From: Myxococcota bacterium
GTDB lineage: Bacteria > Myxococcota_A > SURF-8
Assembly: GCA_963674735.2 (NCBI GenBank)
Contig: CAXXQS010000002.1
Span: 480,001-544,000 of the forward strand
DNA: 64,000 nt
Direction of reading: 5' to 3'
Below, piece by piece: positions 20,445 through 24,501 of this stretch. Positions within the stretch are counted from its first letter, which is position 1; every line of letters starts with the position of its first letter. The position numbers were made by a program, and so were the translations under genes. The notes under the pieces were generated by a model. That model saw only the letters and a program-made list of their open reading frames with translations, was not told the origin of the DNA and did not search any database.

Positions 20445-21227
20445 ATGAACGCGTTAACCTACAAACCCTGCCCGCCCCACGACCCGATGTTGCAACGTTT
20501 CCTCGCCCGCGACCCGCTTCGCCATCTCTATCTGTTGGGTGACACACAGCCCCCTTTCAGCCGCTACAGCCGCTTCTGGTTGGCCACCGACGGTGACGAC
20601 GCACGGGCTTGTGTTCTGTGTTTTCAAGACGGAGCGCGAGCGGCGTTGTTGGCGGCAGGCGATCCGCAAGCCACCACGGAGCTGTTCGCCCGCATCGAAA
20701 CGCCCCGGCAAGTGGTCTACCTGCTTGAAGAAACACACCTGGACACGCTCTTGCCAAGCTTCAACGTCGAGCGCGCCATGCCATTCAAACGTATGGGATA
20801 CGACGGGTCATCTCCCCGCCACGCCTCTGGAATTTCCTGGCGGCGTCTCACCCACGCGGATGTGGACCTCGCCGAGAAGCTGGCCCGCGATGTATCCGAG
20901 GTCGCGTTTACGCGGCGACAATTTCTGAACAACCCCTTTGTGGGCGCCTTCGACGAACAAAACCGGGTGATCGCCATGGCGGGGACGCACGTCTGTTCGC
21001 AACGGCTGGGGATTGCCGCCATCGGCAGTGTCGGCGTCCATCCACACCATCGACGGCAAGGGCTCGGACAAACGGTGATGCAGGCCATTGTTTCCGAATT
21101 GCATCCGCGCTTTGCCGTAATCGGCCTCAATGTCGCCGCCGACAACCGGGCGGCGCGCCGCCTGTACCGACGCCTCGGCTTTCACGACGCCTTTTCGTTT
21201 CTGGTCGGAACGGCCACGCAACGCTAG
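20445..21227 (+). CDS. GNAT-family N-acetyltransferase
   Basis: VGVHPHHRRQGLG acetyl-CoA motif A; NRAARRLYRRLGF motif B. Confidence 0.9.
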   Translation: MNALTYKPCPPHDPMLQRFLARDPLRHLYLLGDTQPPFSRYSRFWLATDGDDARACVLCFQDGARAALLAAGDPQATTELFARIETPRQVVYLLEETHLDTLLPSFNVERAMPFKRMGYDGSSPRHASGISWRRLTHADVDLAEKLARDVSEVAFTRRQFLNNPFVGAFDEQNRVIAMAGTHVCSQRLGIAAIGSVGVHPHHRRQGLGQTVMQAIVSELHPRFAVIGLNVAADNRAARRLYRRLGFHDAFSFLVGTATQR

Positions 21228-21281
21228 GCAATACCGATACTTGCGTTGCGTTGATGACCGTTTCCCTGCGGCAATGGGTGC

Positions 21282-21306
21282 TGGAGCCCGTCACAGACGC
21301 GCTCCA
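21282..21306. repeat. REP-like family A copy
   Basis: TGGAGCCCGTCACAGACGCGCTCCA; same arms as the other family A copies. Confidence 0.55.
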
Positions 21307-21315
21307 GCATGGGGG

Positions 21316-21356
21316 GACAAACATGCGGAGCATGACAGAGCCATGCTCCTGCTCAA
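21316..21356. repeat. REP-like family B, copy 2
   Basis: 39 of 41 nt identical to 20128-20168. Confidence 0.85.
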
Positions 21357-21430
21357 GTTTGCCAAACGGCTATTCGGGATGAGCGGGTTATGTTTCGTTT
21401 AATTAGGAGAGGTTACGCTATGCCCCAAGC

Positions 21431-21454
21431 GATGGGCAACAAGTTGCCCATCCT
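21431..21454 (-). repeat. GTAG-type REP hairpin interrupted by the IS110 element (insertion target)
   Basis: GATGGGCAAC-AA-GTTGCCCATC is a perfect inverted repeat. Rejoined with the right flank it gives ...CCCATC-CT-AC, i.e. GTAG-GATGGGCAAC on the minus strand. Confidence 0.8.
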
Positions 21455-21468
21455 TGTATTATCCCTTT

Positions 21469-21675
21469 CAAGCGACTGTCATCGTTTGTGATGATAAGAT
21501 GAAACGACCTCCCGTAGCAAGCGGGAGGCCGTGGTGGGCGGCGAGATCGTCCCATCCTGGGGCCTGATGAGCCCGTTTTGTAGCCGGATCCGCCGTCCGT
21601 TTCGTCCGGGAAAACCCGAACAGTCGCAGGGGCCATTGTAATCGAAATGAGCCCGTATTGGCAAGGAAGGGTGCG
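21469..21675 (+). ncRNA. Bridge RNA (target-binding loop ~21536-21598, donor-binding loop ~21614-21672)
   Basis: Guides TCCCATCCT (21550-58) and GTAG (21580-83) match the target. ACAGTCGC (21620-27) and CAAG (21662-65) match the end junction. Each pair flanks an inner GGGC/GCCC hairpin. RNA ends are estimated. Confidence 0.85.
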
Positions 21676-21677
21676 CC

Positions 21678-22613
21678 ATGAAGAAATGGATCGGGATCGA
21701 CGTCAGCAAAGCCGTTTTCGATGTCGCCGTCGACGGCGAAAGCACGTGCGTCCGCTACGCTTACACCAAAGCCGGCATGACACGCTTCGTCCGTTCGTTG
21801 AAGCGGATCGAGGTGGAGGGCGTCGTGATGGAAGCCACCGGCGGCTACGAACGGGAGCTGTGCAAACGTCTTCAGAAAGCGGGTTGGCCGGTGGCGGTGG
21901 TCAATCCCCGGCGCATCCGGGATTATGCCCGCGCCGTCGGCGTGATGGCGAAAACGGATCGACTCGATGCGGGCATCATCGCACGCTACGCAGCCGCCAT
22001 GCGTCCCGCACCGAACGAAACGCTCGGCGAAACCGCCCTCCTGTTAAAAGCCCTGTCTTCACGGAGGCGGCAGCTGGTCGCCATGCGCACGATGGAGAAA
22101 AACCGCACCGAACACGTGGGCGATCGGACGATCGGACAAAGCCTGCACCGCATTCTGGAGGTGATCGAACGGGAAATCGAGCGGCTGGATCGGGCCATCG
22201 CGGCGGCCATTGCATCGGATCGGGAGCGCAGCGACCGGGCCGCGCGGCTCCAAACGATGCCGGGCGTCGGCGCGTGCACGGCGAATCTTCTGGTGACGGA
22301 TCTGCCGGAGCTGGGGATCTACAACCGGCGGCAGATCGCGGCGTTGATCGGCGTGGCGCCCATGAATCGGGACAGCGGAACGTTTCGGGGTAAACGCATG
22401 ACCGGCGGCGGTCGTCATCGCCTGCGCACGGCGCTCTACATGCCGACGCTGGTGGCGATTCAACACAACCCGGTGATTCGCGGACACTACCAGCGGCTGG
22501 TCGGACGCGGCAAACCGAAGATGACGGCGGTGGTGGCCTGCATGCGAAAATTGGTCCTCATTCTCAACACGATGATGCGGAAAAACGAAGCCTGGAACCC
22601 GAATTTCGCTTGA
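21678..22613 (+). CDS. IS110-family transposase / bridge recombinase
   Basis: RuvC-like DEDD residues in GIDVSK, MEATGGYE and KTDRLDA; Tnp20 domain with PGVG, APMNRDSG (catalytic Ser), GRHRLRTALYM and ACMRKL. Confidence 0.97.
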   Translation: MKKWIGIDVSKAVFDVAVDGESTCVRYAYTKAGMTRFVRSLKRIEVEGVVMEATGGYERELCKRLQKAGWPVAVVNPRRIRDYARAVGVMAKTDRLDAGIIARYAAAMRPAPNETLGETALLLKALSSRRRQLVAMRTMEKNRTEHVGDRTIGQSLHRILEVIEREIERLDRAIAAAIASDRERSDRAARLQTMPGVGACTANLLVTDLPELGIYNRRQIAALIGVAPMNRDSGTFRGKRMTGGGRHRLRTALYMPTLVAIQHNPVIRGHYQRLVGRGKPKMTAVVACMRKLVLILNTMMRKNEAWNPNFA

Positions 22614-22658
22614 CACCGATAACAGTCGCTACTTTTCTACCTTCTAGGGGTTTTGAAT

Positions 22659-22756
22659 GGGTGGCATAGTTTCACAAACGACGTTCGAGAGGCTGTGTCT
22701 TCTTTATTTCGCACAGCTTCCCACGATCCGTCGGATCGCGTGAAACTATGGCACCC
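22659..22756. repeat. Composite palindromic element (17 bp outer inverted repeat enclosing two hairpins)
   Basis: GGGTGGCATAGTTTCAC ... GTGAAACTATGGCACCC (16/17); inner GCTGTG/CACAGC and CGATCC/GGATCG. Confidence 0.7.
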
Positions 22757-22933
22757 CCTTGATTCGCTAACCTTTTCCTTGATCAAGCAAGATTGTATCC
22801 GGCTCGATCTCGACCACCCCGTCTTCGCTTCGCGTGTGCAAGCGGTACATAGGTTACATTTCAGACCGGGGACATGGGCAACACCTTGCCCCTCCACCTT
22901 TTTCTGGCCAAGCATTGTCGCGACCTGCGGCTG

Positions 22934-23833
22934 CTACACCTCGACACCGAAGCGTTCGGCCAGGGTCAGAGCGGCCTGCATGCCGTCGCCCATGGCAATG
23001 GAGCCTTGACGATAGCGTCCCCGGCATTGGTCGCCGACCACGAAGAGGTTGGGACAGACGGTTTCCCCGCCGAAACCGTCACGCGCAAGTGGCACGCGGC
23101 CGTTATCGTCTACGACAACCGGCGGCTGGGGCACGCGCCCGATGTGAGGCACGATGAAACGATACGGGCCGGGATCGGGCAGGTCGTCGCGCCACACCCC
23201 GGCCTCGTCCACGCGCCAGACAGGGCGGCGGGAGATATGCTCGGCGATGTCCAGCCCACGCACGCGTTCCACGATGCGCGGCAAGGCGCGCAAGCGCTCA
23301 CGGCGACGCGCCAACGTAACCGACGCGCCCGCCAGACGCCAACGGGCCGCCTGATCGTAGGCCACATCCCCGGCACCGACCACCAGCACCTTGCCCGTCG
23401 GATCGGGCGGCAACTCGGGATCGGTCCACAGATAGGGCCGGACTGCCTCGGGGACATCCAGCTCTTTGGCTTGCAGCCCGCAGGCCAACACCACCGCCTC
23501 GGCATCGAAACGGCCCGGCTCACCGTGCAGGGCGAAGGGCTCCCCCGCCGCGCCCGCCACGATGCGATGGACCCGCACGCGCACCGGCACCAGGTTGAAG
23601 TCGCCCAGGTGCGCGGCCAACCGTTCGGCGATCACGCGCCCGGCCGTCCCGTTGGGAAAAGCGGGCCAGTTTTCGACCCGCCAGGCCATGCGGATGATAC
23701 CGCCCGGTTCGCCGGGCTCCAAAAGCAGCACCTGAATCCCCATGCGCACCAGTTGGACGGCGCAGGTGATGCCCGCCGGGCCCGCCCCCACGACCGCCAC
23801 TTGTGAAACAGGTTGACTCGCGCCGTGGGTCAT
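22934..23833 (-). CDS. NAD(P)/FAD-dependent oxidoreductase (thioredoxin reductase-like fold)
   Basis: VAVVGAGPAG, VENWPAF, VLVVGAGDVA, LFVVGD and AMGDG motifs; start overlaps the upstream stop. Confidence 0.85.
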   Translation of the reverse strand: MTHGASQPVSQVAVVGAGPAGITCAVQLVRMGIQVLLLEPGEPGGIIRMAWRVENWPAFPNGTAGRVIAERLAAHLGDFNLVPVRVRVHRIVAGAAGEPFALHGEPGRFDAEAVVLACGLQAKELDVPEAVRPYLWTDPELPPDPTGKVLVVGAGDVAYDQAARWRLAGASVTLARRRERLRALPRIVERVRGLDIAEHISRRPVWRVDEAGVWRDDLPDPGPYRFIVPHIGRVPQPPVVVDDNGRVPLARDGFGGETVCPNLFVVGDQCRGRYRQGSIAMGDGMQAALTLAERFGVEV

Positions 23834-24501
23834 GGCCAAAGCTCCTCCAGGGTTGTCGCGCCACCCACCCCATCGGCCATGGCGGCCAGCAATCGCACAT
23901 GCTGGGTTTCGGTCCAGGCGGCGCAGGCATCCGCCAGCACGACCGGGAAAAATCCCAGACACAAGGCGTGGCGCGCGGTGGTTTCCACGCATAGATGGCT
24001 GGTCACCCCGGCCAGCAGCAGCACGCGCACGGCGCGTTCGCGCAGCCACTCGCACAAATCCGTCCCCTCAAAGGCGGAGTAGGTGTCTTTGGTAAAAACG
24101 GGCGCAGCGAGTGGAGTCAACACGGATTCGAGCGCGGGATGCAGAGCGGCCAGAGGGTCGCTTTCCAAAAGACGCTTGTGCCAGATCGACAGAAAAGGAA
24201 AGGGATCGCTATCGGCGCGGTGGGCGTGTCGGGTGGCGGCGACGGAAATACCCGCCCGTGCGGCACGATGAACCGCCTCGCCCAGTCGCGGCGTCACGGC
24301 TTGCGCCACAGGTAGCGCCGCAGGCGAAAGCGGATCGAGAAAAAAGCGTTGAGCATCGATCACCAGCAAAGCCTGCGGTCCCTCCGGGATGGCGGGAAAC
24401 GCACGACCGCTCGCTCGACACACGGCCTCTAATTGGGTGTGGGCGACGGCGCTGATGTCGCGGTCCTTGAGATAGTCTTCGCGTTTGGGCGACATGGGCA
24501 T
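23830..24501 (-). CDS. Isochorismatase-family cysteine hydrolase
   Basis: ALLVIDAQ, KDTYSAFEGTDL and AGVTSHLCVETTAR give the D-K-C triad. Start uncertain; the upstream part of the track ORF is a shadow. Confidence 0.88.
   Translation of the reverse strand: MPMSPKREDYLKDRDISAVAHTQLEAVCRASGRAFPAIPEGPQALLVIDAQRFFLDPLSPAALPVAQAVTPRLGEAVHRAARAGISVAATRHAHRADSDPFPFLSIWHKRLLESDPLAALHPALESVLTPLAAPVFTKDTYSAFEGTDLCEWLRERAVRVLLLAGVTSHLCVETTARHALCLGFFPVVLADACAAWTETQHVRLLAAMADGVGGATTLEELWP

Follow-up and report, generated by a model that had tools for sequence, protein, structure and literature searches.

Background

The described system against which this locus is best read is IS621 of Escherichia coli, which combines a bridge recombinase with a 177-nt bridge RNA (Durrant et al. 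2024, PMC11208160; Hiraizumi et al. 2024, PMC11208158). In the published layout, the RNA carries left and right target guides and left and right donor guides (LTG/RTG/LDG/RDG), the 3' guide side pairing with the top strand over 4-7 nt; the IS621 core is CT and its wild-type target is ATCAGGCCTAC (PMC11208160). The catalytic roles of the DEDD and Ser residues of IS621, as well as the concept of handshake guides, are described in PMC11208158. Reconstitution of a promoter at the junction of the joined ends is an established IS621 mechanism, and expression from integrated IS621 copies is reported to be weak (PMC13626964). A prediction of 2024 assigned bridge RNAs to 85.7% of IS110-group elements.

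We analysed a candidate element of this kind in the window, by which we mean the whole stretch of 64,000 nucleotides under study. A preliminary description had proposed that the left end of an IS110 element encodes a bridge RNA whose two loops spell out the element's own target and donor sites; on reading the sequence, we found every motif where it had been placed, including two 5' hairpins at 21477-96 and 21508-28. We consider it highly probable that the IS110-group insertion sequence at 21455-22630 moves by bridge-RNA-guided recombination and that it is active, or was so very recently. We regard it as a genuine bridge RNA system, a further diverged member of a system known since 2024 with no new mechanism. 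The features are collected in Table 1.

Table 1. Features of the element and its flanks, with the evidence for each.
Feature	Position	Strand	Evidence
REP-like hairpin GATGGGCAAC-AA-GTTGCCCATC	21431..21452	+	3' arm is the left target; 5' of all 8 copies; 42 full palindromes in the genome
Left target plus core GCCCATC-CT	21446..21454	+	Sequence read; flank of all 8 copies; 16 empty GCCCATC-CT-AC sites in the genome
IS110-group insertion sequence	21455..22630	+	1176 bp, with the core CT assigned to the right end; 8 copies alike in sequence and boundaries
Right donor TG and -10 box TATTAT (21457-62) of the junction promoter	21455..21462	+	Sequence read; hexamer also used by the promoter scan
Predicted bridge RNA, ~207 nt	21469..21675	+	Start placed from the -10 box, end at the foot of the donor-loop stem; R1 match 21532-21675, 135 bits
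AGCGACTGT	21471..21479	+	Perfect inverted repeat of the last 9 bp at the right end; complementary to the left donor guide; pairs with 21620-27 in minimum-energy folds
5' stem-loop CCTCCCG...CGGGAGG	21508..21528	+	Folds; in relatives a hairpin differing in sequence takes this place (by eye)
Target-binding stem-loop	21536..21598	+	Outer stem 21536-43 plus 21545-48 with 21587-98; inner hairpin 21560-74; RNAalifold
Left target guide TCCCATCCT	21550..21558	+	Positions 2-9 match CCCATC-CT; covaries with the left flank, 67 loci; IS621 AUCGGGCCU in equal columns
Right target guide GTAG and handshake CC	21580..21585	+	GTAG 21580-83 is the reverse complement of CT-AC; CC 21584-85; covariation
Donor-binding stem-loop	21614..21672	+	Outer stem ACCC 21614-17 with GGGT 21669-72; inner hairpin 21630-54; RNAalifold, covariation
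Left donor guide ACAGTCGC(A)	21620..21628	+	ACAGTCGC 21620-27; matches right end 22622-29; covariation, 67 loci
Right donor guide CAAG and handshake GA	21662..21667	+	CAAG 21662-65 is the reverse complement of CT-TG; GA complementary to target TC 21451-52
Recombinase gene	21678..22613	+	311 aa; catalytic D8, E52, D94, D97, S233; PF01548, PF02371
-35 box TTGACA, overlaps the stop codon	22610..22615	+	17 nt from TATTAT in the circle; sequence read
Left donor ACAGTCG, core CT and right target AC	22622..22632	+	Sequence read; all copies

Eight identical copies at REP-like hairpins

Reading 21300-23100 placed the left junction at GCCCATC (21446-52), CT (21453-54) and TG (21455-56), and the right junction at ACAGTCG (22622-28), CT (22629-30) and AC (22631-32), giving the element a left end of 223 nt and a right end of 17 nt. 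It sits in the intergenic gap between two long host reading frames, 20445-21227 (+) and 22934-24055 (-). A DNA search of the own genome (5.26 Mb, three contigs), with copies oriented, returned eight copies, each exactly 1176 bp long with 0 differences; these identical copies fix the boundaries of the element independently of the guides. GATGGGCAACAAGTTGCCCATC-CT lies 5' of all eight, as does the longer palindrome GATGGGCAAC-AA-GTTGCCCATC plus CT. AC follows all eight on the 3' side and ACT seven of them, beyond which the flanks diverge.

The palindrome is present in 42 full copies and its right arm alone in 75. That arm is followed by CTAC 16 times, forming the empty target GTTGCCCATC-CT-AC, and by CTTG, the start of an inserted element, eight times. 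These paralogous empty sites show directly that removing the element rebuilds the target, as had been proposed. The 10-mer CCCATCCTAC (CCCATC-CT-AC) is unoccupied 17 times in the own genome, each time inside a REP hairpin, and a search of that genome for a copy of the motif outside REP hairpins gave none. The element behaves as a REP-targeting insertion sequence.

Five of the eight insertions (C1:44591, C1:316291, C1:2611590, C2:305996 and C2:1074275 of the own genome, G000) have an unoccupied CCCATC-CT-AC about 20-25 bp beyond the left end of the element, on the opposite strand where the printed sequence permits checking. At these five insertions, the REP hairpins are paired and one member of each pair is filled.

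Contigs from three DNA runs of one study included a 1202-bp repeat contig spanning 21431-22632 at about 8x the depth of its flanks. Neither a joint of right end to left end nor a deletion of the window copy was seen in these contigs, in which rare forms are invisible. The lack of a circle junction or site-specific empty allele in DNA contigs would suit a bridge system that is real by descent and now inert, its eight copies having spread by duplication or by homologous recombination between REP clusters; the leader, which may mask the left donor guide (see below), would suit it as well. Such a history sits poorly with eight copies that show 0 differences and have kept both their reading frames and their catalytic residues intact. 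Duplication would also bring flanking DNA, whereas the copies have seven different right flanks beyond ACT and varied left contexts, a longer right flank being common only to L006 and L007, and each copy lies exactly at the guide-specified junction. We judge an inert system quite unlikely, and from the sequence evidence we infer that the element is transcribed and active.

A DEDD/Ser recombinase

The sole long reading frame inside the element (21678-22613, +) encodes 311 aa with matches to PF01548 (DEDD_Tnp_IS110, N-terminal RuvC-like; 79.5 bits, cut-off 29, E 3e-22) and PF02371 (Transposase_20, C-terminal Tnp; 68.2 bits, cut-off 21.3, E 8.3e-19). In an alignment to the IS621 structure 8wt6, whose chain numbering is offset by 2, D8, E52, D94, D97 and S233-G234 align with IS621 D11, E60, D102, D105 and S241-G242, and the catalytic D, E, D, D and Ser-Gly are invariant among 34 aligned relatives. 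Both domains and the five catalytic residues point to an IS110-family DEDD/Ser (bridge) recombinase, in agreement with the preliminary description.

The best relatives of solved structure were ISCro4 (9t56, E 3.2e-37, residues 4-300) and IS621 (8wt6, E 1.3e-34). In a collection of 5.8 billion sequences, the nearest proteins were 62-64% identical, and many hundreds of 311-aa relatives lay at 50-57%. A tblastn search found plasmid relatives that, among the matches listed, reached about 44-46% identity at the top and were annotated only 'IS110 family transposase'; three further plasmid records fell in the 60-80% identity band. The own genome held no other PF01548 gene, and blastn of the element against E. 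coli genomes gave no match. The protein had been called compact. This is nothing special, because 311 aa is only a little below the 326 aa of IS621 and thousands of relatives have the same length.

Comparative evidence for the bridge RNA

Single-sequence thermodynamics was weak for the core of the predicted RNA. Folding of 21500-21675 gave z = -0.97, with 35 of 200 shuffles folding equally well, and folding of 21469-21675 gave z = -3.41, to which pairing between 21471-79 and 21620-27 contributes. Every single-sequence fold contained the first stem-loop and its large internal loop. In minimum-energy folds of the full leader, 21471-79 paired with the left donor guide in competition with the donor loop. 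Thermodynamics alone is thus unpersuasive, and it is the comparative evidence that we take as decisive for the predicted structure.

Orthologous loci came from the related genomes G008 (eight copies), G001, G004, G009 and G052, from species-representative genomes (Terriglobia, Gemmatimonadales, Mesolinea and BD1-7), and from 80 metagenome loci. The RNAalifold consensus of 11 orthologous left ends recovered de novo the same two stem-loops, with inner hairpins formed by GGGC 21560-63 with GCCC 21571-74 and by GGGC 21630-33 with GCCC 21651-54. A covariance model, R1, built from nine orthologues and containing no enterobacterial sequence, matched 88 of 91 orthologous loci (89 hits), always just upstream of the gene and on the same strand. 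L060, L111 and L121 gave no match to R1, L111 having only 77 nt upstream. In the own genome, R1 found exactly the eight element copies and nothing else. Counted on an alignment of 89 rows fitted to model R1, standard pairs filled 95.6% of cells, compared with 70.6% after shuffling and 31-52% with slid partners. Compensatory changes occurred at 22 of 24 pairs, including 12 of 12 in the outer stem of the target loop. The fold and the covariance model both bear out the proposed structure. Its gene lies in the long left end, upstream of the recombinase on the same strand, which is where IS110-group elements encode a bridge RNA. No Rfam 15 family matched within 21000-23000; a minus-strand sX15 match there (23.5 bits, below the gathering score of 55; E 0.35) was dismissed as chance.

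The model also reached the bench-validated system. The E. coli W chromosome carries four full-length IS110-family genes whose products are 33-34% identical to the window protein; the one whose annotation we read is an "IS110-like element IS621 family transposase". R1 matched upstream of all four (38.1 bits each, E 3.5e-9), and the IS621 guides AUCGGGCCU, GUAG, ACAGUAUC and CAAG fell in the columns of TCCCATCCT, GTAG, ACAGTCGC and CAAG. Since a model built from this clade detects the IS621 RNA with its guides in equal columns, the window RNA is a homologue of a bench-validated bridge RNA, and the LTG/RTG/LDG/RDG layout previously assigned to it holds.

Two 5' hairpins had been considered extra to this layout. 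The one at 21508-28 is not, as it occupies the place of a 5' stem-loop already described for IS110 bridge RNAs and is kept in relatives (by eye); the one at 21477-96 is not visibly conserved.

Some relatives are rearranged. L009, from a Gemmatimonadales MAG and 43% identical, has a second partial left end directly after its right end (about 2424-2560). This fragment ends at its own left-target-guide segment (...GATTGATCCCCT), followed by an AAC-flank, and looks as if recombination had taken place in the very DNA that encodes the guide, a sequence similar to the target by design. At L024 and L031 (G052 C1:166100-173451), a relative of 41% identity is present as several tandem copies and fragments in a span of about 7 kb, and there is one in-frame TAA in each full copy.

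Guides track the flanking DNA

In the own element, the left target guide matches its target at 8/9 positions and the right target guide at 4/4. We evaluated whether guides change with flanks across 87 RNAs, having dropped a 3'-truncated second hit in L024 and the 5'-truncated L053. Only the TGTAT motif was used to set the left end, and of its occurrences the one closest to the RNA was chosen, which left 67 of 87 loci usable (16 had no TGTAT within 220 nt and four had too little flank). This makes the left-target test conservative, as some loci took an internal TGTAT and some RNAs were offset by one column. A scan of the whole upstream region with the left target guide gave a self mean of 7.0 against 6.0 for non-self; since its window was cut off near left ends it was too blunt, and the position-defined test was used instead.

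Guide positions 2-7 agreed with the six bases before the core in 287 cells, which 0 of 10,000 permutations reached, with the reservation, which applies to all our permutation results, that permutations ignore relatedness among loci and this inflates such tests. By position, self agreement was 0.58-0.79 against 0.25-0.63 for non-self. For the right end, the sole marker was the -35-like TTGA box at the stop codon (again usable in 67 of 87 loci), and the core was CT in 61 of the 67. Right-target positions 1-2 agreed with the reverse complement of the guide in 119/134 cells (47.6 expected) and positions 1-5 in 246/335 (99.5 expected), while the left donor agreed in 420/469 cells against 353 expected by permutation; each of these values was reached by 0 of 10,000 permutations. 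Covariation of guides with insertion sites, proposed earlier as a check, was thereby found for left target, right target and left donor. CAAG was present in 79 of 87 RNAs.

Even so, many independent states underlie the signal. Left-guide hexamers came in 50 distinct forms, of which 17 matched their own flank perfectly, and right-target triplets in 25, of which 21 did so. Left-donor heptamers came in 12 forms, and for ten of these at least one locus had a perfect 7/7 own right end. Beside the own pairing of TCCCATCCT with GCCCATC-CT, examples include TCCCGACCT with the flank (G/A)CCCGAC-CT in G008 and G009, CTCGCAG with CT-GCGAG in Mesolinea, and both TAACAAG with CT-TGTTA and ACGATCGC with ACGATCG-CT in G052. 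Exceptions were G004, which sits in a degenerate hairpin with a 6/9 guide match, and L037, a G008 copy whose right flank is TC, not AC. Three of the seven G008 insertions shown (L033, L037 and L047) lie outside a REP hairpin (by eye).

Two mismatches in the own element fall at positions where the family is loose. T21550, position 1 of the left target guide, mismatches target G; the proposed 8/9 identity is correct, and the odd base sits where the clade has no guide signal (self 0.24, non-self 0.26). Similarly, the proposed left donor guide ACAGTCGC stood, though its next base, A21628 (the ninth), mismatches core T. This is ordinary, because the family is variable there (CC 22, CT 18 and CA 8 of 67 loci).

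The handshake positions follow the same pattern. Pairing is possible between C21584 and donor G7 and between G21666-A21667 and target T6-C7. In 60 of 67 loci the first handshake base of the target loop pairs with position 7 of the donor, and in 55 that of the donor loop pairs with position 7 of the target; the second does not pair family-wide (14 of 67 loci). The alignment of about 90 loci is a natural-variation map of the guide positions that the clade reads, namely six plus two on the left and two to five on the right.

Single motifs of 4-9 nt are short enough to arise by chance in a GC-rich structured leader. Chance resemblance would still have to place all four motifs in structurally equivalent loop positions and make them change with the flanks in relatives, and with 0 of 10,000 permutations reaching the observed match it was tested and is unsupported; its probability is negligible.

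A structured left end could instead be a 5' leader that regulates translation of the recombinase and makes no choice of DNA. The right donor guide and 3' stem overlap the purine-rich AAGGAAGGG, which lies 9-15 nt ahead of the ATG, the donor loop has its 3' strand (21662-72) directly before the start codon at 21678, and small RNAs of ISPpu9 have been proposed to modulate expression. That view leaves the tracking of flanks by 50 guide hexamers and 25 right-target triplets unexplained, along with the reported requirement of the homologous IS621 RNA for recombination, and as the sole function of the structure we hold it most improbable. A regulatory side role beside guiding could coexist. The stretch 21662-21677, formed by the right donor guide with its handshake bases and by the donor stem's 3' strand (CAAGGAAGGGT), is purine-rich and lies just before the recombinase ATG, so that binding of the recombinase to the RNA could affect its own translation as well.

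Promoters and a leader complementary to the donor guide

Joined ends would make a TTGACA-17-TATTAT promoter, which predicts a transcription start near 21469, in line with the preliminary description. The TTGA box lies at equal distance from the core in 61 of 67 orthologues. For the integrated state, a promoter scan found a weaker hybrid, TGGGCA-18-TATTAT (21433-21462, 9/12 matches), whose -35 box comes from the left arm of the REP hairpin. The hairpin followed by CTTGTATTAT also scores as terminator-like. Because it supplies a -35 box and resembles a terminator, the target hairpin may both insulate the element and weakly drive it.

A perfect 9-bp inverted repeat joins AGCGACTGT, 16 bp inside the left end, to ACAGTCGCT at the right terminus (22622-22630). 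Among relatives, it occurs at equal offset only in G001 (AGCGATTGT) and G004 (GGCGACTGT), where both changes keep G-U pairing. Complementarity of leader to donor guide was rejected as a trait of the family, with 8/8 matches in three of 50 loci against 2.5% in shuffled leaders. As those three loci are close kin with equal offset, it counts as one inherited feature, and we treat AGCGACTGT as a feature of the sub-clade. A speculative and rather unlikely reading is that in the own element, G001 and G004 the 5' bases of the RNA, AGCGACUGU (21471-79), serve as a built-in anti-guide that closes the donor loop until the recombinase or 5' processing opens it, making a self-masked bridge RNA, with the integrated copy fed by the weak REP-hybrid promoter. 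A DNA-level role of the inverted repeat as a second, inverted half-site is equally open.

Proposed mechanism

From homology and covariation, we infer the following mechanism for the window element. Excision would join the right and left ends into a circle whose junction builds the TTGACA-17 nt-TATTAT promoter, and transcription would begin near 21469. Folding of the resulting left-end RNA, about 207 nt long, would give a 5' stem-loop, one loop that binds the target and one that binds the donor. Within the target loop, CCCAUCCU reads as the target's top strand does, so it would pair with the bottom strand, and GUAG would base-pair with CT-AC on its top strand; in the loop for the donor, ACAGUCGC and CAAG would pair likewise with the junction ACAGTCG-CT-TG. 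One base after each 3' guide (C21584, G21666) could pair with position 7 of the other DNA, as the IS621 handshake guides do. Four copies of the 311-aa DEDD/Ser recombinase would hold both loops and, with S233 forming a phosphoserine intermediate, cut after the CT core and exchange strands, inserting the circle after CCCATC-CT, the 3' arm of the REP-like hairpin.

The element would thus provide a naturally multi-copy, apparently active bridge recombinase, with an identity of only 33-34% to IS621 and of 62-64% to the closest relatives in the database. With native target, donor, handshake and promoter all readable from its sequence, it is a ready candidate for panels of genome-editing orthologues. 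It opens no new biological question.

Comparison with known systems

The element shares with IS621 its two protein domains, its DEDD and Ser residues, and, by R1, a homologous RNA with guides in equal columns. The CT core, right target AC, CAAG right donor guide and donor ACAGTnn-CT-TG flanked by ATA...TAT are common to both, as are a sigma-70 promoter at the junction and insertion beside REP sequences. The two differ in the protein (33-34% identity; 311 aa here, 326 aa in IS621) and in the target, CCCATC-CT-AC here versus ATCAGGC-CT-AC. In the window clade, moreover, the first of the nine left-target-guide positions lacks a guide signal. The RNA predicted here would reach about 207 nt because of a leader longer than that of IS621, and this leader is complementary to the left donor guide.

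Other members of the family offer narrower comparisons. ISCro4 (9t56) is the best solved-structure match and a distant relative, compared by protein sequence only. ISPpu10 of Pseudomonas putida is an IS110 element whose insertions are all reported to adjoin a GC-rich stem-loop immediately 5' to the base-paired target (bioRxiv 10.64898/2026.03.19.712850). The window element resembles it in that a REP hairpin supplies the left target, as its 3' arm, at all eight insertions and all 17 empty sites, whereas G008, which carries a relative of the window element, has insertions at sites without such a hairpin (three of the seven shown, by eye). The ATA...TAT trinucleotides flanking the window donor are as described for the IS110 group. 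The IS1111 group belongs to the same recombinase family and is likewise described as choosing target and donor by RNA. Its bridge RNA or seekRNA lies downstream of the gene, its left ends are short and its right ends long, and it has subterminal inverted repeats of 7-17 bp. With a left end of 223 nt and a right end of 17 nt, the window element has the layout of the IS110 group, unlike that of IS1111.
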